Positions 30,890 through 47,087 of a stretch of 64,000 bases of DNA are shown one piece after another; position 1 is the first letter of the stretch; each line of letters opens with the position of its first letter. Source of the DNA: Candidatus Latescibacterota bacterium (lineage in GTDB: Bacteria; Latescibacterota; UBA2968; GCA-2709665); NCBI GenBank assembly GCA_965116875.1, contig OZ220733.1, positions 3,840,001 to 3,904,000 of the forward strand, read 5' to 3'. The notes beneath the pieces were generated by a model that searched no databases, had not been told where the DNA came from, and saw nothing but the letters and a program-made list of their open reading frames with translations. A program made the position numbers and the translations under genes.

Positions 30890-30900
30890 CGCAATTCTCG

Positions 30901-31868: not shown

Positions 31869-32981
31869 ATGAAGATCACCCACGTTACCGCGATGGTGTT
31901 GCGGCTCCCTCACGTCACGGACAGCTGCGACGGTACGCAGGATACCTGTTTGATCAAGGTCGAAACCGACGCCGGACTCACCGGCTGGGGAGAGGTGGAT
32001 TCCTGTCCGACCGCGGTCAAGGCCGTCGTGGATGCGCCACTTTCGCACCAGATCTGCAACGGTCTGGCCAATGCGCTTTGCCTGGAAGACCCGCTGGCGG
32101 TGGAAGCGTGTATGCAACGCATGACGGACGCGACGAAGTACTACGGCGTCGATGGCGTGGGGCTGCACGCCATGGCGGGCGTTAATCAGGCGCTCTGGGA
32201 TATTGCCGGCAAGGCCCATGACGTGCCGGTCTACCGGCTCATGGGCGGGCCCTTCAGGAAGCGTTTCCGTGCGTATTGTTCGATTCTGTTCGGGGATTCG
32301 CCCGCGCAGACTGAAGAACTCGGGCGGAGATTCGCGGGGGAGGGCTTTACGGCGGTCAAATTCGGCTGGGGGCCGATGGGGGAGGGGGAGGAGACCGATA
32401 TCGCCCTGGTCAGGGAGGCCCGCCGGGGCGTCGGAGAGGGGGTGGACGTGCTGATCGACGCGGGGCAGGTCTGGGACTGGAAGACGGCCCTGAAGCGGGC
32501 GCGCCGGTTCGCGGAGTTCTGCCCGTTCTGGCTCGAGGAACCCCTGCATCCGTCCGACCTGCGCGGATACGCGAAGCTGGCGGCGGAAAGCCCCGTTCCC
32601 ATCGCGGCGGGCGAAGCGGAAGCGCGGCTGGACGCATTCGAGCGTCTGGTGGCGGAAGGCGGGTTGGACTGGGTACAGCCGGACCCGGGCCGGTGCGGGA
32701 TTTCGACCATGGTGGAGGTGGGAAGGATGGCCGATCGCCGCCATGCAAGAGTCGTGAACCACAGTTTCAAGAGCGGGATTACGATCGCCGCGTCGCTTCA
32801 CGCGCTCGCCGCGGTACCGGGCGGGGAGATGTTCGAGTATTGCATGTCGGAGTCGCCGCTCCGCCACGAACTGACGCACGAACGATTCGAAGTCGTCGAC
32901 GGATGCGTGGCTGTGCCGGAGGGCCCCGGCCTTGGCGTGACGATCAACGAGGAGACGCTGGAGAAGTACCGGGTGGCATAG
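31869..32981 (+). CDS. Mandelate racemase/muconate lactonizing enzyme family
   Basis: ETDAGLTGWGE, ALWDIAGK, KFG, IDAG, WLEEP, AAGE, GPGLGV. Confidence 0.9.
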   Translation: MKITHVTAMVLRLPHVTDSCDGTQDTCLIKVETDAGLTGWGEVDSCPTAVKAVVDAPLSHQICNGLANALCLEDPLAVEACMQRMTDATKYYGVDGVGLHAMAGVNQALWDIAGKAHDVPVYRLMGGPFRKRFRAYCSILFGDSPAQTEELGRRFAGEGFTAVKFGWGPMGEGEETDIALVREARRGVGEGVDVLIDAGQVWDWKTALKRARRFAEFCPFWLEEPLHPSDLRGYAKLAAESPVPIAAGEAEARLDAFERLVAEGGLDWVQPDPGRCGISTMVEVGRMADRRHARVVNHSFKSGITIAASLHALAAVPGGEMFEYCMSESPLRHELTHERFEVVDGCVAVPEGPGLGVTINEETLEKYRVA

Positions 32982-32993
32982 CAGGGCTTCCCG

Positions 32994-33890
32994 TCACCTG
33001 CAGGCCGTCGTCCGGTTCCCGTCCTGAAGTTCCCTGACAAAGGCCGGACTCAGCGTGCCCTGAGCGACCTCCGAGACCGGTCCCTTCATCGTCATGCGAA
33101 ACCCGGGGTCGACCGCGACGTGGAGGGCGCCGCCCGGTGCGTTCACGGTAACCGGAGATGCAGCCAGACCCAGGCGGACGGCCGCGCTCGCCGCCGCGCA
33201 GGACGAGGACCCGGATGCCTGCGTCTCGCCGGCGCCGCGTTCCCAGATGAGAATGAAGATCTCGTTCGGACCCGTGGGTACGGCCAATTGGACGTTGATG
33301 CGATTGGGGAAGAATTCGTGATTCTCCAGGGCGGGGCCGAGCTCGAGCAGGTCATCGCGGGTCCAGGACTCGTGCGCGGCTTTGAAGATGACGCAGTGCG
33401 GATTCCCCACGCTGACCCCCGTGAATCTCAGTTCGCGGCCGGCGGCGGCGATCGACCGTTCGATGAGCTCGCCCCCCGTCAACGTACACGGCAGCGCGAC
33501 GGGATCGAAGTCGGCCTGTCCCATCTCGACGGTCGCGAGGCCGGCATCGCCGTGACGGTCCAGGTGTACCTGGATCTCCACGCGGCCGCCGATCGTGTCC
33601 ACCGTGAAGCAGCGTTTTCGCGTCCGACCGGTGGCGTGGAGGAACCGGGCGAAGATGCGCAGGCCGTTGCCCGACTTCTCGGCCTCGCTGCCGTCCGGGT
33701 TCAGGATGCGCAGGCCGAAGTCGGCGCCATTCCCGGGTTCGAGGGTGAGGATGCCATCGCTGCCGATGCCCCGGTTGCGATCGCAGATGGTGCGGATATT
33801 GTCCGGTGTGAGTTCAAATTCCAGTTCGGCCGGATCCATGACGATGTAGTCGTTGCCCAGACCGTGGCCCTTATAGAAACCGTTTTTCAC
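32994..33890 (-). CDS. dapF: Diaminopimelate epimerase-fold protein (Ser/Ser active site)
   Basis: KGHGLGNDY, GIGSDG, NPDGSEAEKSGNG, VGNPH, WERGAGETQASGSS. GTG 33890 after GGAGGT. Confidence 0.85.
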   Translation of the reverse strand: MKNGFYKGHGLGNDYIVMDPAELEFELTPDNIRTICDRNRGIGSDGILTLEPGNGADFGLRILNPDGSEAEKSGNGLRIFARFLHATGRTRKRCFTVDTIGGRVEIQVHLDRHGDAGLATVEMGQADFDPVALPCTLTGGELIERSIAAAGRELRFTGVSVGNPHCVIFKAAHESWTRDDLLELGPALENHEFFPNRINVQLAVPTGPNEIFILIWERGAGETQASGSSSCAAASAAVRLGLAASPVTVNAPGGALHVAVDPGFRMTMKGPVSEVAQGTLSPAFVRELQDGNRTTACR

Positions 33891-33913
33891 AAGACCTCCC
33901 GAACCCGTCCTTA

Positions 33914-34075
33914 GCAGCCCGTTGAAAAAGTCCATCCGGGCTACGGCCGGCCCTTGCGGTCGAAATACTGCGTTGCGCTCCCTCGCCGAATCAAAGGATG
34001 GGACTCGGTCGCGCGCCTTGTCTTCGGCCACAATGGCTCGGCCTCGCCTGCAGAGCGACTTTATCAACGGACTGT
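33914..34075. mobile_element. MITE-like repeat family A, full length (162 bp)
   Basis: TA|GCAGCCCGTTGAAAAAGTC...GACTTTATCAACGGACTGT|TA. Confidence 0.85.
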
Positions 34076-34134
34076 TAGGGGCTGTCCGACGGGAGTCGGA
34101 AGCCGGCATTTCCCCGGACGGGCGTCACCGGTAT

Positions 34135-35103
34135 TCACTTCCATACAAGCAAGACGCCCATCGTCTCGCCCAGACGGGTATACAGCAGGTCGAAGGCCTC
34201 TGCCGCTTCCTGGTAGGGAAAGCGGTGGGAAATCATCTCTTCGGCGCGGATCTTTTCCTGGGCGAGAAGCTGCAGGGCGCGGTCGGAGCCCGAAGAACGT
34301 CTTCCGCCGTCCGAATACCCGCCGACGATCCGCCGGCCCTGGATCTTTCCGGAGTCCAGCGGCAGGGGCTCGTCCTCATACAGGCCGATCACCTGAATCA
34401 GGCCCTTTCGTTTCACCATATCCTGCGCCTGTGCGAATGCCGCCGCCCCCGCGCGCCCGCCCACAGCCTCCACCACGATTTCCACGCCCGCGCCGCCGGT
34501 AAGGTCTTTGACGGCCCTCACGGGATCTTCGCGCGATGCGTCCACCACGTGTTCCGCCCCCAGACGTCCGGCCAGTTCGCACCGGAAGGGCAACGCGTCG
34601 ACCGCGATCACACCGGGGTTCACTTCCGCGTTCAGCGTTTGCATACAGATTGAGCCTACGAGACCCTGACCCAGAATGGCCACCGTGTCTTCCCTGCGTG
34701 CCTCGAGTTCCCGCATCCAGAGAACGGAACTGGTGCTCAGCGGCCAGAACGTCGCGGCTTCCGAGGAGACCGCGTCCGGAAGCTGCACAACGGGGTTCAG
34801 GTGGCGTGAACCCACGATTTCGACGGCCACGTATTCCGCGTGCGGCGCAAGAGCCGCCACACGGTCGCCGATGGAGAAGCCGTCCACGCGCGCGCCGACC
34901 TCGACGATGTCACCCACGAACGAGTACCCCATGCTTTGATGGTCGATGGCTTCGGGACGGATGTAACGGCGCCAGATCTCGGAGCCACGGCTGATCAGGC
35001 TGCATTCCGCACGGATCAGCACCTCCGTGGGCGCGATTTCAGGAATGGGAACGTCTTCAATGACGATATTGTATTCGCCTTCCGGCTTTGCGACGCGTTT
35101 CAT
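34135..35103 (-). CDS. MDR / zinc-binding alcohol dehydrogenase-family oxidoreductase
   Basis: SLISRGSE, MGYSFVG, GQGLVG Rossmann motif, VEAVG; no structural Zn Cys cluster. Confidence 0.85.
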   Translation of the reverse strand: MKRVAKPEGEYNIVIEDVPIPEIAPTEVLIRAECSLISRGSEIWRRYIRPEAIDHQSMGYSFVGDIVEVGARVDGFSIGDRVAALAPHAEYVAVEIVGSRHLNPVVQLPDAVSSEAATFWPLSTSSVLWMRELEARREDTVAILGQGLVGSICMQTLNAEVNPGVIAVDALPFRCELAGRLGAEHVVDASREDPVRAVKDLTGGAGVEIVVEAVGGRAGAAAFAQAQDMVKRKGLIQVIGLYEDEPLPLDSGKIQGRRIVGGYSDGGRRSSGSDRALQLLAQEKIRAEEMISHRFPYQEAAEAFDLLYTRLGETMGVLLVWK

Positions 35104-35215
35104 GACGGGGTTCCCTGAGTTGGAGATTTGAAGACTTCAGGCGCGGGCATATCGAATCACGAGGAAGGGAGCCGCTCAACCCGTCCTCTGCTGGCAGTCG
35201 CTGCGTGACTTCCGC

Positions 35216-35953
35216 TCAGTCAACCCGCTCGAGGTCCTGGATGTCGCGGCGAAACACCCATGTCCCCTCTCTCACATAGTGAATGGCGAATGCAAGCCGG
35301 GGCCTGCCCGAGGAGCGGTTCGCGTAAGAGCCGTGAATGGTTCTGCCGGTAAAGAACACGCCCGAGCCTCGCGGCACCGTAAGGAAGGTGAGTTCATCGC
35401 GGCCTACGCCGTCGACCTCGTGCGAGTGCATGGTTTCGGTCCACTCCGTGCCGTCGGGTCCTCGCATGGCGTACTCCTTCACCCAGGAGGCGTGTTCGCT
35501 GCTGTCCTGAGGGGGACGGGTATTCCGGAGGGGGGCAAGGTGGCTGCCGGCGGCGACGCAGAGACCGCCGTTGCTGCTGTCGGTGTCGCTCAATGCAAGC
35601 CAGCAGGCCATGAGTGTGCCGGGTTCGTTCCGGATATAGTGAGCGTCCTGATGAAGCGCGATACCCGTGCCCCCGCGCGGCGCCTTTTCCATGTACATGG
35701 TCTGGACGATCATTGGAGTCCCGCCCAACAGCCGGGACGCGATGGCGGAGATGCGGGGATGCGACGCCAGGTAACGCCACTGTGGATCCGCCGTGTGCCT
35801 GCGCAGACCGAGTTCCAGGACTTCCGGTGCCGCCGCTTCCGACTGCGCTTCCAGGAAGGCGTTGATTTCAGACGGCGTCAGCAGATCCTGTACCTGTACG
35901 AAACCGTCCGCACGGTAGGATGCCACCTGCTCCGAAGTCAGGGAGAGTCCCAT
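35216..35953 (-). CDS. PhyH-family Fe/2OG oxygenase
   Basis: YRADGFV, LHQD, WLALSD, NGGL...GSH, IHGSYANRS..R. Confidence 0.9.
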   Translation of the reverse strand: MGLSLTSEQVASYRADGFVQVQDLLTPSEINAFLEAQSEAAAPEVLELGLRRHTADPQWRYLASHPRISAIASRLLGGTPMIVQTMYMEKAPRGGTGIALHQDAHYIRNEPGTLMACWLALSDTDSSNGGLCVAAGSHLAPLRNTRPPQDSSEHASWVKEYAMRGPDGTEWTETMHSHEVDGVGRDELTFLTVPRGSGVFFTGRTIHGSYANRSSGRPRLAFAIHYVREGTWVFRRDIQDLERVD

Positions 35954-35966
35954 CGCGGATTCTCAG

Positions 35967-36914
35967 TCAGGTGAGGTCGAACGGGTTGGACCAGGCTTTC
36001 GCGCCGTCCGTTCCGATGACTTCGAAACGGACCCAGCGTGCGCCCGGCCGCAAGGTGAACGTGGCGCTCGTGAAGGGGTTGCCGGAATTCCTGTATTCGG
36101 TCCCGAACGTATCGCAAATGGCCAGGATACGCCTGGCCTCGGAGCATTCTACGGTGGCCTCGACCGGCCGTTTCTCCTCGCCGCTGCTTCTCCGGAGAGT
36201 GATGTTTCGAATCACGGCGCCGGTACTCGAGTAGCTCGCGCCACGTAACATCGCGTCGAGAATGGCCCCGGGAGACCGGTCCTTCACGCGCACCATCGTC
36301 CAGCCCCCGTACGTGTCACGGTTGTCCGATTCGAGGGCGTGGGAATCGTCGTTGGCAAGGGCGGGATAGAGCCTGTTCTCCAGGTCCATCCAGTCGTCCC
36401 AATGAACGCCGGATTCCCCTCTGCCCGCGCATCGGCAGGTTGTGTTGAACACCTCAACGCCGGCAAATCCCGTGAGCGGAACGGCGTCCCGCAGGATATT
36501 GACCGAACTCCAGTACGGGTGGGCCAGCCACGTGCAGCCCCCCTGCTCCTGAACCGCGTCGATCACGTGCTGGGGCGGCATGTTCTCCGAGTCCATGTCT
36601 TCGTGGATGTTCAGGCAGAGAAAATGGTGTTTCTGTCCGCCGAACGGATTGTCCGGATGCAGTTCGGCGCCCTGAATGAGCACAAAGTCGTCCGGACAAT
36701 CCACGGAATCGATCCGTGTGATTCTGTAATGGTCCGAGAGACACAGAAAGTCGTACCCCTGGCCCACGTAGCCGTCCAGGCGTTCTTGCGGCGACGCCTT
36801 GCCGTCGGAGTTCGTTGTGTGGGAGTGGAGGTTGCCTTTCAGCCAGACATAGCCGTCGTCGGCATCCAGGTTGAACGGGTCCGCGAGGTTCTGCCGGGGC
36901 GCGTTGCCAGCCAT
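35967..36914 (-). CDS. CehA/McbA-like PHP-fold metallohydrolase
   Basis: KGNLHSHTTNSDG, LSDH, GAE, AHPYWS, EVFN, DDSH motifs. Confidence 0.85.
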   Translation of the reverse strand: MAGNAPRQNLADPFNLDADDGYVWLKGNLHSHTTNSDGKASPQERLDGYVGQGYDFLCLSDHYRITRIDSVDCPDDFVLIQGAELHPDNPFGGQKHHFLCLNIHEDMDSENMPPQHVIDAVQEQGGCTWLAHPYWSSVNILRDAVPLTGFAGVEVFNTTCRCAGRGESGVHWDDWMDLENRLYPALANDDSHALESDNRDTYGGWTMVRVKDRSPGAILDAMLRGASYSSTGAVIRNITLRRSSGEEKRPVEATVECSEARRILAICDTFGTEYRNSGNPFTSATFTLRPGARWVRFEVIGTDGAKAWSNPFDLT

Positions 36915-36992: not shown

Positions 36993-38162
36993 TCAGGTCT
37001 GGTGCACGATTGGGGACAACTGGGTTGCGGGACACGCCCGCGCTCCCTTGACGTCGTACCCCATGTCTTTGAGGATGCAACTGATCTGGGATTCGAGCTG
37101 GAGGAGGTATTCCCTTTCTTCCCCGCTCATGGTCTGCCGCGGCGGACCGACGTCGAATCCGCGCACGGCCACACCGGTTTTGAATCCCTCGGGAAAGTTC
37201 ACACCCAGCAGCATGAGGTTGATGAGATCCAGGATGCGGTATTGCATGCTGCGTGCGTTCTCGAGGTCGCCGGACAGCGTCTTTTCATAGATATCCACAA
37301 TGACCTCGGGAATGATTCCGGACGTCGCGATCGTGCCTCCGCTGGCGCCCATCATGATGGATGGACACAGGATTTCCTCGCAGCCGACCAGGACCACGTA
37401 ATCGGGGCGCTGTGCGCGCAGTCGATGCATGGTATTGATCAACCGCGGCATATCCCTGCTGGAATCCTTGGTACCCATGATGCGTTCGAACGGCAGCAGA
37501 CGTTCCATAATGTCCAGCGTGAGTTCCTGCGTGAACTGGGGGATATTGTATAAAAGGACGTCGAGAGGGGTCTGTCTCGCAATTTCAGAGAAGTACTCGA
37601 AGAGGCTTGTGTCCGAGATCTCGTAATAGTACGGGGGTACGAGAGAGATGGCGTCGACGTCGATGCCCGCGTAATATTCGCTCATTCTGAGCACGTCGCG
37701 GAGGTTGGCTTCGCTGGCGCCCGCAAGAACCGGAATCCTTCCCTGGTTGACGTTCGTAACCAGGCGCACGACCTCCTTGCGCTCGTCGCTGGAAAGACGC
37801 ACGAATTCGCCGGTGCTGCCGTTGGGATACAGCCCGTGGATGCCGGCCTCGATGAGCCAGTTGACGTAGCGCTCCATTTCCCCGTAGTTGATGCGATCAT
37901 TGCCGTCGAAAATGACGATGTTGGGGCAGAAGATGCCCTTGAATTCCTTCCTCTCTCCGGATTTGCGACGTACGGCCGGCGTTGAAGCTGGCGGTCCGGC
38001 GGCTGTCGCTTCTTTCCTGGATACCTGGACCTGGCGGGCCGCAAGGTAGTCCAGCGCAAGCGGCGTCAGCTTTGCCCGCGGGCAGATTTCGACTTCCCGC
38101 TCAGAGCCCAGTTTTTCCTTGAGCAGTTGTTCGGTAACAACCGCGTCGTCAATACGGATCAT
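36993..38162 (-). CDS. DHDPS/NAL-family class I aldolase/lyase with N-terminal extension
   Basis: NGSTGE, PPYY, LYNIP and Schiff-base GTKDSS; extra N-terminal VVTEQLL...LTPLALDYL segment. Confidence 0.88.
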   Translation of the reverse strand: MIRIDDAVVTEQLLKEKLGSEREVEICPRAKLTPLALDYLAARQVQVSRKEATAAGPPASTPAVRRKSGERKEFKGIFCPNIVIFDGNDRINYGEMERYVNWLIEAGIHGLYPNGSTGEFVRLSSDERKEVVRLVTNVNQGRIPVLAGASEANLRDVLRMSEYYAGIDVDAISLVPPYYYEISDTSLFEYFSEIARQTPLDVLLYNIPQFTQELTLDIMERLLPFERIMGTKDSSRDMPRLINTMHRLRAQRPDYVVLVGCEEILCPSIMMGASGGTIATSGIIPEVIVDIYEKTLSGDLENARSMQYRILDLINLMLLGVNFPEGFKTGVAVRGFDVGPPRQTMSGEEREYLLQLESQISCILKDMGYDVKGARACPATQLSPIVHQT

Positions 38163-38192
38163 CGATCATTCCCAAGAGGGTTCAGCGGCGGA

Positions 38193-39353
38193 TCAGTGGA
38201 TCAGCCGCTCTTCCAGCGCCGGATAGGGATGGGGAATAAGGTGTGCGGACACCAGTTCGCCGTACCTCTCCGCCTCCCCGGCGCCGATTTTCAGGGCGGT
38301 ACGCACCGCGCCGACGTCTCCACGGACGACGCTTGCCGTGAGAAAGTACCCTACCTTGTACCGGCCCTCGTACTCCACGTCCGCGGATTTCAACATCTGA
38401 TCCACGGCTTTCACCAGGGCCACCGTGCTGCGCGTTTCGATCAATCCCATCGCCTGATGCGGGCCCGAGGCGTTCCTGACGGTGTTCCCGCCGAAACATG
38501 CCATGATTTCGGAGGACGGGCGGGAAACGACACAGGATGCATTCAGTTCCCCGGCTTCCCGCGCGCCATCGATTCCCGCTTCCACGGCTGCCTGGACGGC
38601 GTCAAGTGCGCCTTTCACGAGCGCGTCGACCCGGCCGCCGCTGGCGATGACAAGCCGCATGAGGTCCACGTCGGCCGCTTTGACCATCGCATCGGATCCC
38701 CCGACCGCGGACGCATAACCCGTTGTTTCAAGAACACCCAGCGCGCCAGCGTCTTCCTCGTGCCCGTTGGAAACCGGCGCATCGGGAAGCAGCGGTGCGA
38801 TACCCGCTTCCGGTCTGGGAATTGCCAGGGTCCCGTAGACTTCCCCGGCTTCATCCGCACACACTTTTCCGGCCTCAAGCGCCGTCTGGACCGATGAAAT
38901 ATCGCCACGTACCACGAGATGAACCAGCGCGCCGCCAACGGACGTCCAGCCGGCGACGCGGACGGGCGCGCTCTTGACCATTGCGTCCGCGCCGCGTATC
39001 AGGGGTACCATGCCGCGCGTTTCAAGGATTCCCATCGCCTGCGCGCCAACCGGTTTCGCCGTGCCACCGCCCGCCATGTGCGGCATGGACTCGAGGGCGC
39101 CGGGGGCCGGGCCGGCGATCACGTCGGCGCGAATCAGTTCGCCGTGGGTTTCGGCTTCGGATCGCCCGATCCGAATGGCGGCCTCCACGTCCGAAACAAC
39201 GCCTTCGATCACGACGGTCAGCCAGCCGGATCCCACGCCGTGACGTCCCTGAACCCTGACGTCCACGGTCTTGAGCATGGCGTCCAGAGCCGCGACAAGC
39301 GCGGTCATGCCGCGGGTTTCCAGAATTCCCAGGGCGTGATTCCTTGCGGGCAC
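38193..39353 (-). CDS. Bacterial microcompartment shell protein with four tandem BMC domains
   Basis: Four repeats of A(L/M)G(I/V/L)(L/I)ET...D(A/Q)M(L/V)K...G...V..A...G, each about 90 aa. Confidence 0.92.
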   Translation of the reverse strand: MPARNHALGILETRGMTALVAALDAMLKTVDVRVQGRHGVGSGWLTVVIEGVVSDVEAAIRIGRSEAETHGELIRADVIAGPAPGALESMPHMAGGGTAKPVGAQAMGILETRGMVPLIRGADAMVKSAPVRVAGWTSVGGALVHLVVRGDISSVQTALEAGKVCADEAGEVYGTLAIPRPEAGIAPLLPDAPVSNGHEEDAGALGVLETTGYASAVGGSDAMVKAADVDLMRLVIASGGRVDALVKGALDAVQAAVEAGIDGAREAGELNASCVVSRPSSEIMACFGGNTVRNASGPHQAMGLIETRSTVALVKAVDQMLKSADVEYEGRYKVGYFLTASVVRGDVGAVRTALKIGAGEAERYGELVSAHLIPHPYPALEERLIH

Positions 39354-39361
39354 GACGGCGC

Positions 39362-39919
39362 TCAGGGTCCGAACGCCCGCAGGACGTCGGGCAGGGGTTT
39401 GGGGATGAGGGCGTCGCCCAGGAAGTTTTCTCCGCCCTCGACGCTGGCGCGGCCCACGGGCAGGGCCTCGGCCACGGACGCCACGTCGCCAAGAATAAGG
39501 GAGCAGACCACCCGGTTGTGAACGGTGAGCACGTTATAGACCCGGACGTCGGCCGCCTTCACCATGTTGTCGTTGGCGGTGACGTGCGAGCCGTATCCTC
39601 TTGTTTCGATCAGACCCAGCGCGCCGGACGGCGTCTGCCGCTGTGTATCGTTTGCATTGGAAACGTAATCCCGGCAGGCGGGTTCGGGGTGCGTCATCGG
39701 CGCCGCCACGACCTGCCCTGACACTTCCCTGGCCGCTTCTTCGCCGCACTCGAGCGCCGTCGCCACCCTGCTGATCGATCCGCCGAGAAAGACGGTGGTA
39801 AATCCGCCGATGGACTCCCAGCCCAGGAGATCCACGCCGGCAGCCTTGCAGGCGGCGTCGGATGCGAGAATTATCCCCGCGACGCCTTCGACTTCGATCA
39901 TGCCGATCGCGGCTGACAT
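39362..39919 (-). CDS. Bacterial microcompartment shell protein with two tandem BMC domains
   Basis: AIGMIEVEG...DAACKAAGV and ALGLIETRG...DNMVKAADV. Confidence 0.92.
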   Translation of the reverse strand: MSAAIGMIEVEGVAGIILASDAACKAAGVDLLGWESIGGFTTVFLGGSISRVATALECGEEAAREVSGQVVAAPMTHPEPACRDYVSNANDTQRQTPSGALGLIETRGYGSHVTANDNMVKAADVRVYNVLTVHNRVVCSLILGDVASVAEALPVGRASVEGGENFLGDALIPKPLPDVLRAFGP

Positions 39920-40006
39920 GCTGCCGTCCTGGTGTGTTTGACCGAACGATTCGGTACCGAAAATTCAATCGGACATCATCAAAACGGGTGGAACCAAAGC
40001 CAATGC

Positions 40007-42427
40007 TCAGAACAACAATACCGAGACCGCCTTCTGGATCATGGCAATGGAGACGGAGGCCATGCCCACCAGGGACATGCCCACCGAAAAACCGACGTAC
40101 AACACCGCCGCGTAGAGGCGCCATTGCTGTCTGCCGAAGCGCTTCCAGAAATAGTACCGCGCGAGGAGCGCGCCGATGATCTCGGTGATCATCACGTGGG
40201 GAATGCTGGTCAGACTCCGAATATATCCGAAGATGAGCAGGACCGGCAGGCCCAGGACGGACAGAACCACGAACGAGAACAGGCCGACGGCGAGTCCGAT
40301 GGCGATCACGATCGGCTTGATGGCTTCGAACAGGATCGGCTCGTCGTCCGAACTCTGCAGAAAGGAACCGTCGAAGGAGGGCACCTGGTCCACTTCGAAC
40401 TGATAGACAAGGTCCCGCCCCTCCGGATCCCGCGCGGCGAGCACGACCAGGTTGGGGTTGGGGTTGTCCGCGTGGCTTCCGTCATCCGGACCCCGCAATA
40501 CCGGCGCCGAAGGCAGCCCCCTTTCCAGAGCTTCGGATATGTCCGGCGCCGACCGGTCCACCGGAAGCGGCGGCACGAGCGGCTTCTCGGTACTCTTGAA
40601 GTTTGTATAGAAATACCCAACGCGGGACCACGGGCCGTACGTGCGTTGTTCGTGGTCGTCGATGTGCGCGTCGGCCGAGGCGCGGGCACGCCAGTACCAC
40701 CAGTTGCCGTCGGGCAGATTGCTCGGCTGGAAGGATACCGTCCCGGAGGATGCTTCGTGCTCCACCTCGCCCTGCATGGTACCCGTGTACCAGACGCTGC
40801 TCTGGAGCGCCCGCAGCGGCCACATCATCTGGACGTAGGGGTAGGAGGAGGAGGGAATGGGCGCCAGTTTCCAGATATAGGACCAGTACATGAAACTGGT
40901 CAGGAGGATCAGCGGGATCATGAAAACCTCCGCTTTCAGGATCCCGGTGAATTTCGAGCCCGTGAGTTCGATCTGACGGAATGTTTCGGCCTGTGCGCCC
41001 CAGTTGGCCAGGGGGAACGGCACAAACCAGATTTCGATACCCCTGAACCCACTCAGAAAGATCGTGGCTTCCTTGATATAGGGGATATTGACGTTCTGCC
41101 CGACCAGGCCGTCCAGACGGGCGTTGACGAAGGAGATCAGCGGCGTGTAGACAAAGGCGAAGATGAAGAAGAAGGCGAGCAGAAAGGTGCTTACGAGGTC
41201 GGGGAAGAGAATCTTGGCCAGGATTATGGTATACAGGCTCGCAAGACTGAAGAGTACGACGCAGATCCAGATCCGGAAGTCTCCCCGGCCGGGCGGCGGC
41301 GTCCAGCTGCCCTTTTCTTTCTTCTCCACGCGCGCGGTACGGACGCCCGTCCAGACCTGGTAGAATCCGATAATCGCAATGGCGAAGGTGATGCCGATCC
41401 CGAAGCTCATCCAGAAATCGATGCCCGTGACGAAGTGGGTCATGATGGTATCCATGCCCATGTACCAGTTGGGCATGTACCCGTAGGAATACAGGATGGG
41501 GCCCGCCGCGGTGTGGATGACGACGCCGATGAATGCGCCCATGACGGCCCAGAAGGGCGCCAGCAGCCCGGCGAAGATGGGGGCCAGGTGCAGCGTGAAA
41601 CCCAGCGGCGTGGCCGGCAGGAAATATCCCGTGTACTGGGTGAAATCCACCCACGGGATGGGAATGAGCTGAAGCGGGCTCTCCATGAACGCGCCGGTTA
41701 TGGCGGGCACCGCCACGTAGACGGAGCCGAATACCACGCCGATCACGGCGCCGATGCTGAAGACCCGCCATCGCCAGCTGTACTGGCCGCTGCTTTCTTC
41801 CGCGAGCGCCATGGCGCCCTGGGCGTTGATCGGCGCGAAGGGAAAGGGCAGGCGTTCGTAGTCGGAGGTGATGCGGAAGAGGACGTAACTCGCGGTGAAC
41901 CACTGGATGCGCCCCATGATCATTCCCAATACGAGCAGGGAGATGGGCAGGAGCCAGTCCTGATGGAGAAAGGTCCGGTCGATCAACGCCGGAGAATCGG
42001 GCGGGGGCGCCCACCAGCGGGGGATGAGGTGGGAGATGCCGAATTGCTTCGCTGCGGGAGACTGAACGTAGTACTGCTGCCAGAGCAGGCCTTCGAACAT
42101 GCCGGTTTCGCGGGCGACCAGGGCGCTGGTGACGTAGTAGAGCAGGTAGAGTTCCTGCTTCTTCAACACGGTGAACGAGCGCTTTGCCAGTTCCAGAAAC
42201 AGGATGATGGTCACCCACTGGGCGGCGGCGCCGACGGAATGTCCCACCATGAGTTCCAGGTAGATATTGCCCGGAACCATAATGACGGAAACGAAAAGCG
42301 CGCCGAGAATCGTCTTGGAGTTGAAGCCCTCTTCGAACTCCTTGGGGACTTCAAGCAGATCCCGGTACTCTTCGATTTCCTGGTACGGATTGGATTTCCG
42401 CCTGCGAATTCGATCCAGAAAGGCCAT
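40007..42427 (-). CDS. OPT-like (putative peptide transporter) polytopic membrane protein with soluble insertion
   Basis: Many TM segments; EEYRDLLEVP..FEEGF N-terminus; ERLPFPFAP motif; ~145-aa soluble beta-rich insert near the C-terminus. Confidence 0.7.
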   Translation of the reverse strand: MAFLDRIRRRKSNPYQEIEEYRDLLEVPKEFEEGFNSKTILGALFVSVIMVPGNIYLELMVGHSVGAAAQWVTIILFLELAKRSFTVLKKQELYLLYYVTSALVARETGMFEGLLWQQYYVQSPAAKQFGISHLIPRWWAPPPDSPALIDRTFLHQDWLLPISLLVLGMIMGRIQWFTASYVLFRITSDYERLPFPFAPINAQGAMALAEESSGQYSWRWRVFSIGAVIGVVFGSVYVAVPAITGAFMESPLQLIPIPWVDFTQYTGYFLPATPLGFTLHLAPIFAGLLAPFWAVMGAFIGVVIHTAAGPILYSYGYMPNWYMGMDTIMTHFVTGIDFWMSFGIGITFAIAIIGFYQVWTGVRTARVEKKEKGSWTPPPGRGDFRIWICVVLFSLASLYTIILAKILFPDLVSTFLLAFFFIFAFVYTPLISFVNARLDGLVGQNVNIPYIKEATIFLSGFRGIEIWFVPFPLANWGAQAETFRQIELTGSKFTGILKAEVFMIPLILLTSFMYWSYIWKLAPIPSSSYPYVQMMWPLRALQSSVWYTGTMQGEVEHEASSGTVSFQPSNLPDGNWWYWRARASADAHIDDHEQRTYGPWSRVGYFYTNFKSTEKPLVPPLPVDRSAPDISEALERGLPSAPVLRGPDDGSHADNPNPNLVVLAARDPEGRDLVYQFEVDQVPSFDGSFLQSSDDEPILFEAIKPIVIAIGLAVGLFSFVVLSVLGLPVLLIFGYIRSLTSIPHVMITEIIGALLARYYFWKRFGRQQWRLYAAVLYVGFSVGMSLVGMASVSIAMIQKAVSVLLF

Positions 42428-42551: not shown

Positions 42552-45500
42552 TCACGCCGGTTCCGCTTCCGGTTCGTCCGATACCAGTATCCGCATGCCT
42601 TTTTTCCGGTATGCCGCTTTCTCGGCGGGGTCGACGGTTCTCCAGATGAGGAACTGCTTGCGGAGGGTATTCATGAAACCCTGGTTGACCCGCCGCCAGG
42701 AAGCGACTTCGCCCGAGCGCCGCCTGAGGGTGAGCTTCAGGGTGTAGATGTCGAACTGGCCGGTGGGTTCGGCCTCGAAGCGAAGCTCCTCGCTGACGCC
42801 CAGATCGAACGGCGCCAGCCATAGGGTCGTACGGATGGCGTATCCGGTCTCACCGGCGCCGCCCTTCCCGTACAGATGGGCGCCGTCCGTGTAGAACGCA
42901 CCCATTGCTTCCCCGCTGTGGGAGTCAAAGTAGTCCGTAAGGAACACGCAGAGCCCGAATACGTCGTTTCCGCCAACCGTAAAGGGGAATTCGAAACGCC
43001 AGTCGTCGCCGTCGGGCTCCGGGATCTTCCACCGGCGGGACACGTCCGGCACGGCCATCAGCGAGGCCTGCCGGGCCGGATAGAGGGTGGACAGGATGAC
43101 GACGGCCATGACCAGGGCGGACGAAACGACGGCCGATTGGGCGGAGTAGTTGACCGTGACGCCGGAGAGCCAGCCCTGCCACAGGAGCAGCTTGGCAACG
43201 CCCTGGCCCAACACGTAGCCGCTCACCGTGCCGAGGACGGCGTAGACGCAGGCTTCCGCGATAAACAGAAAAGCGACGTGGACCGGCGCCAGGCCCACCG
43301 CGGAATAGACGCCGATTTCCCGAAACCGTTCGTACACGGAACCCATCATGGTATTCAGCACGATGAGCGAGGCGATAAGGATTGGAATAAAGAGATCGCT
43401 CATCCCGCGTCTCGATGTATCGCCCAGCGAACTGAAAATGGAGACGCTGACGCGACCGTCCGCGTCCGGAAGACCCGCGAACAGTACGACCGAGAGCCTG
43501 GACAGAAGCTCCTTGACAATGCTCTCCACGTCCGATCGGGCGTCGAACCGGAGGGCGACCGACTGGAGCGGGCTGCCCACCTGGCGCAGGAACGCGTACG
43601 GGACGATCAGGACGTCGTCGGGGTTGATGTGCTCGAAGGGCATGATTTCGACTTCAGGTTGTTCCAGGCCCTGTTTTTCCCTCGTTTCCTGGGTCGTCAT
43701 CTGTTCGATGGCTAACTCGTCGGTCAGCTTGAAGTCGGCAGGACTGAGGGGTTCCTCATCGAGGTCCTTGAGTTCGCTGAACGCCCCGGCGTCGATCAGG
43801 CCGATCACCGGCAGGGATTCCCCGAATACCCGGACGCGGGTCGCCTCCGGGCGGGCGGGGTCCACGCCAAGGAGCTCCGCGATCTTCCCGGGCAGGATGC
43901 ACGCGGATTCACCCGGTCGAAACCAGCGCCCGCTCTTGAGGGTCCTGTGTATGCCGGTCACGTCCGCCTCCTCGGGCGTCATTCCCAGAACGCCGAGTAC
44001 GTGTGTCGACCTGTTTTCGGACTCGACGGGGATGATCTTTTTCTCCCGCGTATAGTACCAGCTTCTTGGGGCCGTAATCGCGGATTCCCGGAAGTGGGTG
44101 ACGGCATAGTCGTAGACGACGTCTTCCAGCGGGCCCCAGAACTTGCTGCGGATGAGCATTCCGGGGTACGGTCCCTCCATGCCCAGGGGAATCCGGCGAA
44201 ATTCGAGAGCCGTTTTGATGGACGTAAACGAGAGTACCGTAAACGTGAGGAGCAGGAGCGTGGTGAACGTAAGCGCCGTGCGCAGTTTGCGGCGTTTCAT
44301 GTTTGCGATGCCGAGTTGAAAGGCCGCCAGGGAGGCGGAGATTCGACCCACGTCGGTTTCATGCAAACGCACGTCCGGGACCCGTAACCGGCGCATGGTT
44401 TCGTTGAACCGGCTGAAAACGAGGGAAATCACGAACACTGCGAGCGCCAGAATGACGAAGGCGAGCAGCACCACCAGGGGATTGGAGATTTCGAACGCCG
44501 GATGCACGTTTGAAAGGAAAACCCAGATGAGCACGAAAATACCGATAAATCCCGCAATCTGTCGCCGGATATCCACGGCTGTAAAGATGAGGCGTTCCGT
44601 GAAGAATGCGCATGGGATGACCAGGGCCATGAAGAAGACGACGCCGCGCACCACGTCGTTCTGCGTGTCTTTGACGTCCGGATAGGCGCGCGATTCGATG
44701 CCGAGGGCCGCGCGGGTGTGTTTCATGAAAACGTCCCAGCGACTTTGGGTCATCGCGGCTTCGGCCATGTCCAGGTGAACACGAGCCCGGCTGTGCAGCA
44801 TGTTCAGGCGCTGGTTTTCGATGGCGTATTTCTGCATCTCCTGCTTCCGGGCTTCGTTCAGGGTCCACATGTCACGTGCGGCCAGAAAGGAGGTGCGCGC
44901 AAACGACCCGTGGGTGAGCGTGGGGTAACCCGTGCCGCGGGCGATTTCTTCGCTTTCGGCGCTCGTCGCATTCAGCAGCAGGAAGCGGATGCCGACTTCG
45001 CCCGAGCCCGCCGCGCCGCCGCCTGCTCTCATCGCGACCTTGATTCTCTCTCCCGGACGCGTGAACAGGGTGCCCACGGGTTCCGTCGGACCGAAGCCGA
45101 TCGCGTACCCGTATTCCTGCGGCGTGACGTTGCCGCTTCCGTAGACGCTGATCTGAGACAGCTTGGTCAGAAATCGCGGATCGACGGTATCGTAGAAGTC
45201 CGTGGCGATACAGGGAAAGAGGATGATATTCCGCTTGGAGATCCACCAGTCCATGTCGAAGTCGCCGCGGTAGATTCTCGCCTGCTGTCCGTAATTTGGC
45301 GCGTAGGTGATCTCACCGGTCTCCGGATCCTGAAAGTAGGCGCTGACGGAGACGCGGCGTTCGGCGATCCCGGGCATATAGAATTCACCGTTTTCGTCGG
45401 CAAGGTCGTAGTAGATGCGCCGGACGCCCTTGACCGATTTGTCGATGCCCATCCGGAGCGCGGCGATGGCGCCCGGCTTGGGCCGGTCGGGTACGATGCT

Positions 45501-47087
45501 GCGCCTGGGAAAGGTACGTACGAACCCCTTCAGGCCGCGCATCCGGTCATCGGGATTGAGCCGGTAATCCGGGATGAGCGACGGGTCGTTCAGGGCAATG
45601 TCGAGTACGCCCGCAATCAGGCGGATCTGTTTTGCGAGATTCTCGAAGTTTACCCCTTCCGGCCGGTCCAGGGGCGTATCGACCCGGAAGCGGGCATCGT
45701 TCAGCGTGACCAGAGACAGGGCGAGCGTGCCGGCTTCGAGAACGACTTCGCCGTCGGTCTTCAGGTTCGCGCCGGGGATGAACATATCCCAGGTCATTCC
45801 GCCCGTGGGATTGATGCCGTCCAGCAGCGCCTGATCGGGGTCGAGGCCGAAAGCGGGCGCGATCGCCTTCGAAACCCGGACGAATTTCTTGCCGAAGGGC
45901 GTGAAGAACCGGTTGTAGTAGAAGTTGCGCGTGCTGTTCCAGACGCCGATTTGAGCGGTCTGGCTCGACAGGTCCAGACCGATGAAGAGACGAATGTCGA
46001 TGGGGTCGGTCATCAGCGCCGCGAAGTGTCTTTCCTTCCTGGCGTGGCGGCCCAGAAAGTCGCAGATGCCGCGGAAGCCGAGATGGTGGGCGGACGTGGC
46101 CAGAAAGAGCACCGTACGCCCGGGGGGGTATCGCTTGAAGTAGTCGACCAGTTCCAGCAGGGCGACCGCGCCGCTGGCCATCTCGGCGCCGGGCGCCAGC
46201 GCCGGGACGACGGACATGGCGTCGTAGTACGCGTTGATCACGACGATCTGTTCCTTCAGGATCGGATCCGAGCCCGGAAGGAAGCCCAGAATATTGTGGG
46301 CGGTGTGTTTCTCCCACTCCATTCTCGCGTGCAGTTCGATCTCCAGTTCGCCGCGTTGTTCAAGAAGTGCCTTCAGAGCCTGCCCCGATGCTTTATCGAT
46401 CCAGAACCGTTCCACGCTGTTGGGCACCTGCAGGAATTTCTGCTCGGCTTCGGTATAGAAAGTTGAATCGGGCTCGATGAAGATGATCTGCCCGGCCCCC
46501 AGGGTGGCCGCATTCAGCCAGCTGTTCCGGGTATTGAATTCCATGAGGACGGCGGCGCCCTCGAGCGCGTGACCGTTGAAGTCGGCGAATTCCCCGGTCG
46601 CGCCGTAGATCAACCGCGTGCGGACCCCTTCGCGCGGCAGCGTGGAGGTCTTGACGAGGTTTGGCCAGATCGCGTGCATGGGAAACGTGATTTTGTCCGG
46701 CAACAGCGTCAGGCTGCCGCCCTTGTCAACGGGCGAGGTGACGTCGAACGGCTCGGCCCGGACGTCCTGGAGACCGGCGCTCTCGAAACGGCGCCGGATG
46801 TACTCCGCGGCCGCGGCGTGTCCGGGGTATCCGGGAACTCGCGACCGGTGCTCCGTAAAGCGGGCAACGTGCGATCTCACGCCGGCGTCCGATACGGTAT
46901 CGAGTACGCGAACCGAAGTGGCGTTCGCTTCCGGAATGGAAGGGGACGGTGGGGAAACCGGCGCTCGGAGTCCCAGGATTGCGGCAAGGTAGGGGTTGAC
47001 GCGTTCCGGTCCCACCGCAAGGCCGGCAAAGGCCCCGGCGGCGAAGAGAAGCGCCAGTACAAGACCGATGCGTGGACGGGTTTTCAT
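42552..47087 (-). CDS. M28-peptidase-like / FtsX-MacB permease fusion protein (1511 aa)
   Basis: Signal/anchor; SRVPGYPGH..AAEYI and PA/M28-like region; TM bundle; NMKRRKLRTALT; NTMMGSVYERFREIGVYSAVGL...FIAEA FtsX signature. Confidence 0.8.
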   Translation of the reverse strand: MKTRPRIGLVLALLFAAGAFAGLAVGPERVNPYLAAILGLRAPVSPPSPSIPEANATSVRVLDTVSDAGVRSHVARFTEHRSRVPGYPGHAAAAEYIRRRFESAGLQDVRAEPFDVTSPVDKGGSLTLLPDKITFPMHAIWPNLVKTSTLPREGVRTRLIYGATGEFADFNGHALEGAAVLMEFNTRNSWLNAATLGAGQIIFIEPDSTFYTEAEQKFLQVPNSVERFWIDKASGQALKALLEQRGELEIELHARMEWEKHTAHNILGFLPGSDPILKEQIVVINAYYDAMSVVPALAPGAEMASGAVALLELVDYFKRYPPGRTVLFLATSAHHLGFRGICDFLGRHARKERHFAALMTDPIDIRLFIGLDLSSQTAQIGVWNSTRNFYYNRFFTPFGKKFVRVSKAIAPAFGLDPDQALLDGINPTGGMTWDMFIPGANLKTDGEVVLEAGTLALSLVTLNDARFRVDTPLDRPEGVNFENLAKQIRLIAGVLDIALNDPSLIPDYRLNPDDRMRGLKGFVRTFPRRSIVPDRPKPGAIAALRMGIDKSVKGVRRIYYDLADENGEFYMPGIAERRVSVSAYFQDPETGEITYAPNYGQQARIYRGDFDMDWWISKRNIILFPCIATDFYDTVDPRFLTKLSQISVYGSGNVTPQEYGYAIGFGPTEPVGTLFTRPGERIKVAMRAGGGAAGSGEVGIRFLLLNATSAESEEIARGTGYPTLTHGSFARTSFLAARDMWTLNEARKQEMQKYAIENQRLNMLHSRARVHLDMAEAAMTQSRWDVFMKHTRAALGIESRAYPDVKDTQNDVVRGVVFFMALVIPCAFFTERLIFTAVDIRRQIAGFIGIFVLIWVFLSNVHPAFEISNPLVVLLAFVILALAVFVISLVFSRFNETMRRLRVPDVRLHETDVGRISASLAAFQLGIANMKRRKLRTALTFTTLLLLTFTVLSFTSIKTALEFRRIPLGMEGPYPGMLIRSKFWGPLEDVVYDYAVTHFRESAITAPRSWYYTREKKIIPVESENRSTHVLGVLGMTPEEADVTGIHRTLKSGRWFRPGESACILPGKIAELLGVDPARPEATRVRVFGESLPVIGLIDAGAFSELKDLDEEPLSPADFKLTDELAIEQMTTQETREKQGLEQPEVEIMPFEHINPDDVLIVPYAFLRQVGSPLQSVALRFDARSDVESIVKELLSRLSVVLFAGLPDADGRVSVSIFSSLGDTSRRGMSDLFIPILIASLIVLNTMMGSVYERFREIGVYSAVGLAPVHVAFLFIAEACVYAVLGTVSGYVLGQGVAKLLLWQGWLSGVTVNYSAQSAVVSSALVMAVVILSTLYPARQASLMAVPDVSRRWKIPEPDGDDWRFEFPFTVGGNDVFGLCVFLTDYFDSHSGEAMGAFYTDGAHLYGKGGAGETGYAIRTTLWLAPFDLGVSEELRFEAEPTGQFDIYTLKLTLRRRSGEVASWRRVNQGFMNTLRKQFLIWRTVDPAEKAAYRKKGMRILVSDEPEAEPA

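Follow-up and report, generated by a model that had tools for sequence, protein, structure and literature searches.

A conserved pair of four-domain and two-domain microcompartment shell proteins as a candidate asymmetric hexagonal tile

The window analysed here, a 64,000-nucleotide stretch of a Candidatus Latescibacterota genome, carries on its minus strand two adjacent genes for microcompartment (BMC) shell proteins, BMC2 and BMC4, followed by a gene for an aldolase-like enzyme. Their features are as follows, in window coordinates.

39362..39919, minus strand: BMC2, 185 aa, ATG start, two canonical (non-permuted) BMC domains, T1 and T2
39704..39910, minus strand: domain T1 of BMC2, PF00936 match, edge motif DAACK (K25), pore loop ESIGGF
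39395..39622, minus strand: domain T2 of BMC2, PF00936 match, edge motif DNMVK (K121), glycine-free pore loop LTVHNR
38193..39353, minus strand: BMC4, 386 aa, GTG start, four canonical BMC domains, F1 to F4, and three linkers
39108..39335, minus strand: domain F1 of BMC4, PF00936 match, edge motif DAMLK (K28), pore loop HGVGSGW
38811..39038, minus strand: domain F2 of BMC4, PF00936 match, edge motif DAMVK (K127), pore loop TSVGGA
38517..38744, minus strand: domain F3 of BMC4, PF00936 match, edge motif DAMVK (K225), pore loop VIASGGR
38226..38453, minus strand: domain F4 of BMC4, PF00936 match, edge motif DQMLK (K322), pore loop YKVGYF
36993..38162, minus strand: DHDPS/NAL-family class I aldolase-like enzyme, 389 aa, 30 nt downstream of BMC4
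37998..38162, minus strand: N-terminal module of the aldolase, about 50 aa, conserved in the alignment, with a Pro/Ala/Ser-rich linker to about residue 73

An initial sequence-only reading had reported a 386-aa protein with four BMC domains and, 8 bp upstream, a 185-aa protein with two. Both open reading frames were recovered, with 8 nt (39354-39361) between the BMC2 stop and the BMC4 start, and the six edge motifs and six pore-loop strings quoted in that reading are all present in the translations. The predicted domain numbers were obtained in a Pfam search (cut-off 24.5 bits), which gave four PF00936 stretches for BMC4 (247.5 bits) and two for BMC2 (112.2 bits); in a six-frame search of the genome, all six domain places scored above the PF00936 cut-off. 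The domains are 25-42% identical to one another and match the profile collinearly, at positions 1-75 in five of them and 1-68 in T1. None shows the circular permutation that defines BMC-T(dp) and BMC-T(sp), and the solved chains nearest to the two proteins, BMC-H and PduT, are non-permuted too. The calculated masses are 39.5 kDa for BMC4 and 19.0 kDa for BMC2.

In current descriptions, BMC shells combine hexamers, whose subunits have one domain, with trimers of two-domain subunits and with pentamers. Only six shell-protein types are listed in the main text of a 2021 catalog (PMC8217296). BMC-T(s) proteins such as PduT share with the pair the canonical non-permuted PF00936 domains, the linker of about 20 residues, the lysine edges and, in the arrangement proposed here, the hexagon-shaped pseudo-hexamer; PduT chains can be aligned over their full length with BMC2 and with the F3-F4 half of BMC4. 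They differ in having two domains per chain, three identical chains and a three-fold pore, whereas the arrangement proposed here would combine 4+2 unlike chains asymmetrically. By the rule of exactly two domains, BMC2 falls within BMC-T(s), BMC4 with its four does not, and the pair taken as a unit is not a BMC-T(s). The top PDB match of both proteins is a synthetic BMC-H tandem fusion, 6NER (122.8 and 90.4 bits), in which consecutive fused BMC domains occupy neighbouring ring positions, as would be the case here. In contrast to this engineered trimer of chains with two identical domains, BMC4 and BMC2 are natural proteins with six diverged domains distributed 4+2. The three BMC4 linkers have median lengths of 22, 20 and 22 residues (n=112) versus 21 (range 18-27, n=211) for the junctions of two-domain BMC proteins, a match that fits an arrangement of consecutive domains as ring neighbours.

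The four-domain gene is found in 82 of the 168 genomes of the window's phylum, as a single copy in each, so that the fusion is not an artefact of assembly, a possibility that the sequence-only reading had set against its own proposal. That reading had also asked whether a two-domain gene always adjoins, and it does: among 77 genome loci, a two-domain ORF lies directly upstream of BMC4 in 69/69 with a complete four-domain ORF (the 8 others being left out of the count), and among 65 metagenome loci in all 34 where both genes are complete. The same 4+2 layout is shared by 69 genome loci and 42 metagenome contigs, far beyond chance. In relatives the two genes overlap or nearly abut, compared with the 8 nt between them here. 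Of the 14 genomes of the window's genus, 13 have both ORFs intact, and identity is 80-92% in the 13 genomes other than the window's own. On two metagenome contigs BMC4 is broken, by an in-frame stop (L108) or a frameshift (L138); we read these as errors or pseudogenes and not as alternative architectures.

A natural six-domain fusion, which would prove a single tile, was looked for and none was found. The candidates, long open frames of for example 791 aa, proved to extend upstream out of frame, BMC2 being encoded in an ORF of its own. Neither a five- or six-domain form nor a second four-domain family occurs among the best 150 of 4977 matches in 1.84 billion representatives.

The edge lysine of BMC proteins, in a D-x-x-x-K motif, serves tile-tile contacts. 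It is invariant at all six positions of the pair, K28, K127, K225 and K322 being present in 54/54 alignment rows and K25 and K121 in 64/64. Each position also keeps a conserved pore loop of its own. In BMC4 these are H38, G41 and W44 (F1), G140 (F2), G239, G240 and R241 (F3), and G335 and Y336 (F4), all conserved in 54/54 rows; in BMC2, S36, G38 and G39 (T1) and L131, R136 and V137 (T2) are invariant in 64/64 rows, and H134 of T2 is found in 60/64. A tree built from 213 domains of 24 loci groups each domain position into a single clade, with support of 99 for F1, 98 for F2, 98 for F3, 99 for F4, 100 for T1 and 100 for T2. The 4+2 layout therefore arose once and is fixed. The tree gives no resolved relation among the six positions, or between them and the neighbouring BMC-T and BMC-H, and it speaks neither for nor against a simple origin of the domains from three fused BMC-T units.

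The central claim of the sequence-only reading, a 1:1 complex completing one hexagonal tile, was supported by complex modelling, judged from the contact list rather than from atomic coordinates. The BMC2-BMC4 model reached an ipSAE of 0.75 (0.72-0.79 over the runs) versus 0.00 for the best of three controls, at a benchmark mark reached by 58/80 solved complexes and 2/110 mismatched pairs, although for BMC proteins, of which solved rings are abundant, such a pass may show only that six BMC domains fit a ring. At least 97% of contacts are shared between runs, and the pLDDT of the partners is at least 89. BMC2 is predicted to touch only F1 and F4, via equivalent surfaces, residues 8-92 of F1 with 107-138 of T2 and residues 308-365 of F4 with 7-85 of T1. 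Contacts limited to the first and last BMC4 domains imply a closed six-domain ring in the model, with F4-T1 and T2-F1 as its closing junctions. Covariation between domains (APC-corrected mutual information on the six aligned domains, concatenated for 104 BMC2/BMC4 pairs, Neff 37) gave no signal; at this depth not even the certain neighbours F1-F2, F3-F4 and T1-T2 stood out from non-neighbours in high scores.

These data bear on another way of arranging the same domains. BMC2 could form an ordinary BMC-T trimer and BMC4 a separate trimer of twelve domains, in which F1F2 and F3F4 make two rings, stacked face to face or in tethered neighbouring tiles. The alignments with PduT-type tandem proteins, of BMC2 end to end and of BMC4 residues 204-384 (F3-F4) as one unit, would suit such homo-oligomers; another BMC-T class has double-stacked trimers, as described in the main text of PMC8217296, and a linker of about 20 residues might in principle span to another ring. 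However, the F2-F3 linker is as long as ordinary intra-ring junctions, the edge lysine, which a stacked outer ring would not need, is invariant in all four BMC4 domains, and the domains are canonical, not of the permuted type known to stack. The two genes are moreover adjacent and single-copy in every complete locus, and the 1:1 model is a confident closed ring. We consider separate homo-oligomers unlikely. Most likely, as the model predicts, BMC2 and BMC4 join one-to-one into a single six-domain hexagonal tile.

In such a tile, BMC4 would fold as a four-sixths arc of a BMC pseudo-hexamer and BMC2 would fill its gap, giving a 1:1 heterodimer of about 58.5 kDa with the ring order F1-F2-F3-F4-T1-T2. 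The domain count itself, 4 + 2 = 6, was counted in favour of one tile. The six lysine-bearing edges would let it pack with ordinary BMC-H and BMC-T neighbours. Since the six domains all differ and would be fixed in position, the central pore would have no rotational symmetry; to our knowledge, every hexagonal BMC tile has a pore of at least three-fold symmetry. The predicted lining consists of Ser42, Gly141, Gly240, Tyr336, Gly39 and the His134-Asn135-Arg136 stretch. Glycine-lined positions would alternate with polar, aromatic or cationic ones, F2 and F3 together offering a contiguous glycine-lined stretch. We infer the 1:1 assembly from the modelled contacts; the 4+2 tile is probably real, though structurally unproven, and its incorporation into shells, including uptake by PVM shells, and the function of its pore are presumed from the features described.

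The stoichiometry of CcmK3/CcmK4 hetero-hexamers, found in beta-carboxysomes, is variable. Like the tile proposed here, they put more than one gene product into a hexagonal tile and change its pore, according to the account in PMC6788708. Unlike it, they are made of single-domain paralogues, whereas the 4+2 arrangement would fix the order by covalent linkage plus one partner. The mixed hexamers of paralogous BMC-H reported there lend some credit to a looser scheme, with BMC4 as an open arc completed promiscuously by two BMC-H, by another BMC-T or by BMC2, which would then not be obligate. Immediately upstream, most relatives do encode an extra BMC-T of 186 aa and a BMC-H of 87 aa. In the window's genus, however, the extra BMC-T is missing, yet BMC2 still adjoins BMC4; T1 and T2 each form a separate clade and keep distinct conserved pore loops, and the co-occurrence of BMC2 with BMC4 has no exception. 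Promiscuous completion therefore seems to us quite improbable, and we retain the one-to-one tile.

Literature searches turned up no description of four-domain or three-domain BMC proteins, and the main text of two locus taxonomies, of 2014 and 2021, contains none; the comparison drew on passages of PMC8217296, PMC4207490, PMC9052549, PMC3909097, PMC4454575 and PMC11323493, and the supplements of PMC8217296 might show these genes. To this extent the literature agrees with the earlier claim that a 4+2 shell architecture is undescribed. The further suggestion of a new system holds for the tile architecture and does not extend to the organelle itself, which is of a known kind. Among the database matches listed, we noted 14 representative clusters of three-domain BMC proteins (283-330 aa), with Elusimicrobiota, Dehalococcoidia and Calescamantes MAGs among the names. 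Like BMC4, they occur naturally and carry more than two BMC domains per chain; they reach six domains only as pairs (2 x 3). They differ from BMC4 in belonging to different families and other phyla, and they would need no second gene. Their existence suggests that they follow the same rule of domains summing to six per tile. If this is true of both, tiles obey this sum and not the dichotomy of hexamers and trimers.

If the proposal is correct, the pore-lining and edge positions of the 4+2 heterodimer could all evolve independently of one another, a first among natural tiles. An asymmetric pore could recognise an asymmetric metabolite, which bears on shell permeability, and any attachment site would occur exactly once per tile. 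The tile would be relevant to shell engineering, which seeks single-copy, addressable positions per tile.

The gene downstream of BMC4 points to a possible role for the pair. Residues 74-361 of its product match PF00701 (187.8 bits, Pfam), which places it in the DHDPS/NAL family, and its translation contains the strings GTKDSS, GSTGE and YNIP, which we take to be the motifs around the Schiff-base lysine of these aldolases. It scores under every NCBIfam equivalog cut-off (NanA, PRK04147, 160.9 versus 281; DapA, 141.7 versus 206.15), so that it is neither DapA nor NanA proper; among solved structures, E. coli YagE and KDG aldolases come closest. In 62 of 70 loci the aldolase gene is the next one downstream after BMC4; in 2 of the other 8 the contig ends. 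It is likely the cargo or signature enzyme of the module. Its substrate would be a 2-keto-3-deoxy or 4-hydroxy-2-keto acid, cleaved into pyruvate and an aldehyde, and the tile would most likely be a dedicated gate, possibly a docking site too, for the substrate or product. The 4+2 loci would point to a metabolosome built around a DHDPS-family aldolase, a type that the 2014 and 2021 locus taxonomies do not mention in their main text and that is common in two families of this poorly studied phylum.

The N-terminal module of the aldolase matches no Pfam family at E<=1 and is found nowhere else in the genome. Fifteen of 16 word-based matches to it are on DHDPS proteins, the sixteenth being a 125-aa fragment. 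As a guess, it may be a putative targeting region. A suspected likeness to an N-terminal region of some BMC-associated enzymes was dropped, given the lack of a Pfam family and the restriction of the module to DHDPS-family proteins.

In most relatives the locus reads AldDH, BMC-P, PTAC, BMC-T, BMC-H, a 148-aa unknown, BMC2, BMC4, aldolase and a DAO-family oxidoreductase. The window's genus keeps together only the BMC2-BMC4-aldolase trio. The main BMC locus of this genome, at C1:826-834 kb, is PVM-like and about 3 Mb from the pair. It contains the genes that define PVM loci, namely a class II aldolase (PF00596), an aldehyde dehydrogenase, an acetate kinase, a BMC-P triplet and BMC-H; it has no BMC-T of its own, and the 4+2 pair lies outside it. 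The three BMC-P genes are thus about 3 Mb away from the pair, whereas relatives have one BMC-P inside the same locus. Outside the genus, three of four relatives (G168-G170) have the pair at a distance from a BMC-P triplet and from lone BMC-H genes, and the fourth (G171) has just one BMC-P gene. Within the window's genus, G172 shows the same arrangement as G000. FRAG-type (fragmented) BMCs, as given in the main text of PMC8217296, have a BMC-P triplet and shell genes spread over several sites in the genome.

From this arrangement we propose that the trio may be a satellite module of a PVM-like microcompartment. The same text describes 'EUT modules', satellite EutABC enzymes with an EutL-type tile, which are suggested to give a microcompartment that is already present one further substrate (PMC8217296). 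In that case too, the signature enzyme and a specialised pseudo-hexameric tile are encoded together, apart from the main locus. Here, by contrast, the enzyme is a DHDPS/NAL-family aldolase, the tile would be the 4+2 pair and the host locus is PVM-like. Our main reading is that BMC2 and BMC4 make one 1:1 shell tile, acting as an aldolase-linked gate and, in this genus, as a satellite of a PVM-like BMC; we put its probability at roughly 65%. The fuller account, in which a hard-wired asymmetric heterodimeric tile with six non-equivalent edges evolved once as the aldolase gate, and perhaps dock, of an undescribed metabolosome and serves as a PVM-like plug-in in this genus, we regard as an even bet.

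The distance of about 3 Mb between the pair and the BMC-P genes of this genome could also mean that the pair makes no closed shell, building instead another assembly such as sheets, tubes or an aldolase scaffold, or that it is a decaying remnant in this genus. Against this, both ORFs are intact in nearly all genomes of the genus at the identities given above, the conservation of edge and pore motifs argues for purifying selection, and in relatives the pair sits within a full locus with BMC-P, AldDH and PTAC; the RNA-library contigs described below count weakly in the same direction. We find a non-shell role or decay very hard to credit, and the shell tile remains our reading.

In a close relative, RNA-library contigs cover parts of BMC4 and of the aldolase. 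They come from one run, X1, and consist of three short contigs with real overlap and two pieces of <31 nt, which makes this weak evidence of expression. The closest RNA-library match is a sponge metatranscriptome.

The pair is made of two genes that unquestionably encode BMC-domain shell proteins, BMC2 (domains T1 and T2) and BMC4 (domains F1-F4), and is followed by a gene for a DHDPS-family aldolase:

39362-39919, minus strand: BMC2, ORF of 185 aa with ATG start; two PF00936 stretches, 112.2 bits
38193-39353, minus strand: BMC4, ORF of 386 aa with GTG start; four PF00936 stretches, 247.5 bits
36993-38162, minus strand: DHDPS-family enzyme, 389 aa; PF00701 at residues 74-361
37998-38162, minus strand: conserved N-terminal module (~50 aa) of this enzyme; counterpart at L043:9735-9920, in a full metabolosome locus

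The sequence-only reading had expected four plus two BMC domains, and Pfam returned these numbers. Scanning the complete genome in six frames gave six separate domains for the pair, each above the PF00936 cut-off used (24.5 bits); none is permuted (0/6). The edge motifs and pore-loop strings quoted earlier were all present in the translations. BMC2 and BMC4 are 8 nt apart. The aldolase gene starts 30 nt downstream of BMC4, and a pattern scan of the minus strand detected no terminator-like sites between the three genes. BMC2 alone has the BMC-T(s) architecture, whereas BMC4 falls outside its two-domain definition.

At E<=1e-10, a word-indexed protein search with BMC4 gave 289 matches. All of the top 120 had lengths of 366-424 aa and 53-97% identity, came from MAGs labelled Gemmatimonadota or Latescibacterota and, where named, were called only 'BMC domain-containing protein' or, as miscalls, CcmO or CcmL/EutN. 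Within the GTDB phylum of the window, the four-domain gene was found in 82 of 168 species genomes, in single copy every time (15/21 and 64/76 in two families, 2/31 in a third), a recurrence which rules out the assembly artefact once considered a possible refutation. Exhaustive phmmer against 1.84 billion cluster representatives yielded 4977 matches at E<=0.001; the best 150 held one full-length four-domain cluster (P0121) and fragments of it, and no BMC proteins with five or six domains.

The prediction that a two-domain gene always accompanies the four-domain gene was borne out in 69/69 genome and 34/34 metagenome loci with both complete. The genome scan (one genome per species) gave 77 loci, and in the 69 with a complete four-domain ORF the end of the two-domain ORF and its start are no more than a few nt apart; seven of the other eight were cut by contig ends and one was a Brevibacillus contig with unrelated single-domain BMC genes only. 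In the metagenome scan (65 loci), BMC2 and BMC4 were both complete and adjacent in 34. Eight more carried a complete four-domain ORF at the very contig start, seven of them preceded by a truncated BMC ORF; at L114 the contig starts too near the four-domain ORF to show any upstream ORF. The 23 loci without a complete four-domain ORF reflect contig ends, plus L108 (in-frame stop after the second domain) and L138 (frameshift before the fourth), whose breaks are probably errors or pseudogenes because they stand on single low-coverage contigs. No intact BMC4 lacking BMC2 was seen among genome and metagenome loci where this could be judged.

The domain tree comprised 213 BMC domains from the window plus 23 diverse loci, among them those of the ordinary BMC-T and BMC-H neighbours. 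F1, F2, F3, F4, T1 and T2 each formed one clade (support 99, 98, 98, 99, 100 and 100), with only 25-42% identity between positions; the tree did not resolve relations among the six. Since each position is its own clade, the 4+2 layout is old, arose a single time and has kept its arrangement. Across the aligned sequences (54 of BMC4, 64 of BMC2) the edge lysine was invariant at 6/6 positions, and every position had its own conserved pore loop:

F1 (BMC4 alignment): H-G-[IV]-G-S-G-W
F2 (BMC4 alignment): I-G-G-A-L
F3 (BMC4 alignment): S-G-G-R
F4 (BMC4 alignment): Y-K-V-G-Y
T1 (BMC2 alignment): S-I-G-G
T2 (BMC2 alignment): L-T-V-H-[ND]-R-V

Median lengths of the successive BMC4 linkers are 22, 20 and 22 residues (n=112), and that of ordinary two-domain BMC proteins in the same loci is 21 (range 18-27, n=211), as expected if F2 and F3 were ring neighbours like a BMC-T domain pair. 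The earlier observation is thereby confirmed: two always-adjacent, single-copy genes carry six diverged, position-fixed BMC domains, all with tiling edges. Such conservation disfavours a non-shell or decaying pair.

The 1:1 complex prediction suggested by the sequence-only reading was run three times with BMC4 (alignment A3) and BMC2 (alignment A2), along with 3 controls. The model reached an ipSAE of 0.75 (runs 0.72, 0.75 and 0.79) vs 0.00 for the best control; in the calibration set this mark was met by 58/80 solved complexes and 2/110 mismatched pairs. At least 97% of contacts agreed between runs, with partner pLDDT of at least 89. The contacts of BMC2 are confined to the two ends of BMC4 (F2 and F3 have 0 contacts), through F1 residues 8-92 against T2 residues 107-138 and F4 residues 308-365 against T1 residues 7-85. 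The two junctions are formed by equivalent surfaces, the preceding domain contributing its first helix and pore loop and the following domain its beta-1, pore/beta-3 and beta-4 regions, and by this pattern the model closes a ring that runs F1-F2-F3-F4-T1-T2. A family whose complexes are already solved can pass on likeness to them, and this applies to BMC hexamers and trimers; the model therefore shows that 4+2 fits the standard BMC ring with confident, specific junctions, which falls short of showing binding or of dismissing homo-oligomers.

In the main rival, the two proteins would form separate homo-oligomers, BMC2 a trimer and BMC4 trimers arranged as stacked or bridging double rings. Several points make this less likely: the edge lysine is invariant in each BMC4 domain, the F2-F3 linker resembles that of BMC-T, the domains are canonical rather than permuted, the pairing has no exception, and the 1:1 model closes a single ring. 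Domain count, pairing and modelled ring speak for the proposed hexagonal tile of one BMC2 and one BMC4. All computational tests run support this interpretation, a structural prediction whose probability we put at roughly 0.65.

The main text of the 2021 catalog (PMC8217296) distinguishes six types of shell protein, with five hexagonal building blocks, and the same types appear in the taxonomy of 2014 and in the paper on BMC Caller. The tile architecture, unfamiliar to the sequence-only reading, is absent from that main text, and full-text searching found no description of four-domain BMC proteins or heterodimeric pseudo-hexamers, which may stand unremarked in supplementary locus diagrams. Nor was any description found of three-domain BMC proteins, of which 14 representatives outside the window (283-330 aa; P0131, P0133-P0136, P0138-P0140, P0142, P0148, P0156, P0161, P0163 and P0171) were among the best 150 phmmer matches, named only 'BMC domain-containing protein' or CcmO, from MAGs labelled Elusimicrobiota, Dehalococcoidia and Calescamantes. 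A pair of such chains would bring six domains together, making a homodimeric pseudo-hexamer possible.

The 5.45-Mb genome forms a single contig. Its remaining shell genes (two single-domain BMC and three BMC-P) lie only at 826-834 kb, together with aldehyde dehydrogenase, class II aldolase and acetate kinase genes, in a PVM-like locus without BMC-T; the window pair is thus a satellite, ~3 Mb away. The order in this main locus (L089, G000:C1:818001-838000) is BMC-H, BMC-P, AldDH, two BMC-P, class II aldolase, acetate kinase and a 149-aa BMC-H; two large ORFs there (475 and 253 aa) have no Pfam family. The satellite arrangement is common to the genus (loci L012-L024; genome G172). In a larger, more distant group the pair sits inside a full metabolosome locus: aldehyde dehydrogenase, BMC-P, PTAC, 186-aa BMC-T, 87-aa BMC-H, a 148-aa protein of no known family, BMC2, BMC4, the DHDPS-family enzyme, a DAO-family FAD oxidoreductase and a second, shorter DHDPS-like protein. 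Homologues of the flanking genes occur in 48-55 of 78 loci. Promiscuous completion of a BMC4 arc by BMC-H or the other, 186-aa BMC-T is disfavoured, the window's genus lacking that BMC-T yet keeping BMC2. The 148-aa ORF (L043:7545-7991, plus strand; no Pfam family; median identity 60%) lies between BMC-H and BMC2 in 55/78 loci, is absent from the window and might encode an additional shell-associated protein or a cargo.

A BMC-P triplet and lone BMC-H genes lie elsewhere in 3/4 checked genomes with the full locus, which is reminiscent of the fragmented BMCs (FRAG type) known from Gemmatimonadetes and candidate phyla through the 2021 catalog (PMC8217296). The pair plus aldolase, as a proposed plug-in module, would parallel the 'EUT modules' (enzymes plus an EutL-type tile) described there as satellite extensions.

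Of the pair's neighbours only the DHDPS-family gene is constant, lying directly downstream of BMC4 in 62/70 loci (gaps of 0-85 nt); two of the other eight are contig ends. The window enzyme scores below every NCBIfam equivalog cut-off, so it is neither DapA nor NanA proper; among solved structures it is closest to E. coli YagE, which is a 2-keto-3-deoxy sugar-acid aldolase, and to KDG aldolases, with DapA and NanA ranking behind. Its translation contains GSTGE, YNIP and GTKDSS, which correspond to the family's catalytic threonine/tyrosine and Schiff-base lysine motifs. Metabolosomes combine an aldehyde-generating signature enzyme with an acylating AldDH and PTAC, and a pyruvate-dependent aldolase releasing an aldehyde would fit this logic. 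Given the DAO-family gene next to it, a hydroxyproline-type route is also conceivable, with a DHDPS-family deaminase giving a semialdehyde. About 73 residues precede the PF00701 domain, the first 50 well conserved and followed by a variable Pro/Ala/Ser-rich linker. No Pfam family matched the module at E<=1, and the searches located it on the DHDPS-family enzyme only; from its layout, which is that of encapsulation signals, we infer a putative encapsulation role.

The proposed mechanism is as follows. BMC2 and BMC4 chains (19.0 + 39.5 kDa) would join 1:1 in a single pseudo-hexamer, which would take its place in the shell tiling as BMC-T does. By alignment to the BMC-H G-S-G pore motif, its pore would be lined, in ring order, by Ser42 (F1), Gly141 (F2), Gly240 (F3), Tyr336 (F4), Gly39 (T1) and His134-Asn135-Arg136 (T2). 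F2 and F3 would form a single contiguous glycine-lined stretch; the rest (Tyr336, the His-Asn-Arg stretch, Ser42) would be aromatic, cationic or polar, interrupted by Gly39. Such an asymmetric pore could be selective for an anionic keto acid that the co-inherited aldolase uses or produces, and in the window's genus the three genes would be a plug-in module of the PVM-like organelle. We see about even odds that the tile gates the aldolase module.

In X1, a metatranscriptome run labelled 'sponge metagenome', short contigs were 95-99% identical to parts of window 36993-40006, within BMC4 (38366-38577) and the aldolase (37406-37637 and 36993-37048). They may come from DNA carry-over; they also hint at a close relative living in sponge, with these genes transcribed there.

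Three large genes upstream are kept beside the pair in only 12-15/77 loci, those of close relatives, and the genes of the downstream run are common to only 12-16/77:

40007-42427, minus strand: 806-aa hydrophobic, membrane-like protein, no Pfam family
42552-47087, minus strand: 1511-aa protein combining an FtsX-like permease domain with M28 peptidase
47175-49289, minus strand: DUF6785/DUF6784 protein
28771-36914, minus strand: catabolic-looking run downstream, with an enolase-superfamily (MR_MLE) dehydratase, an NAD-dependent epimerase/dehydratase-family protein, two PhyH dioxygenases, a DAP-epimerase-fold protein, a zinc alcohol dehydrogenase and a 315-aa protein with a faint PHP match

A sugar-acid dehydratase from this run would fit a pathway with a 2-keto-3-deoxy-acid aldolase.
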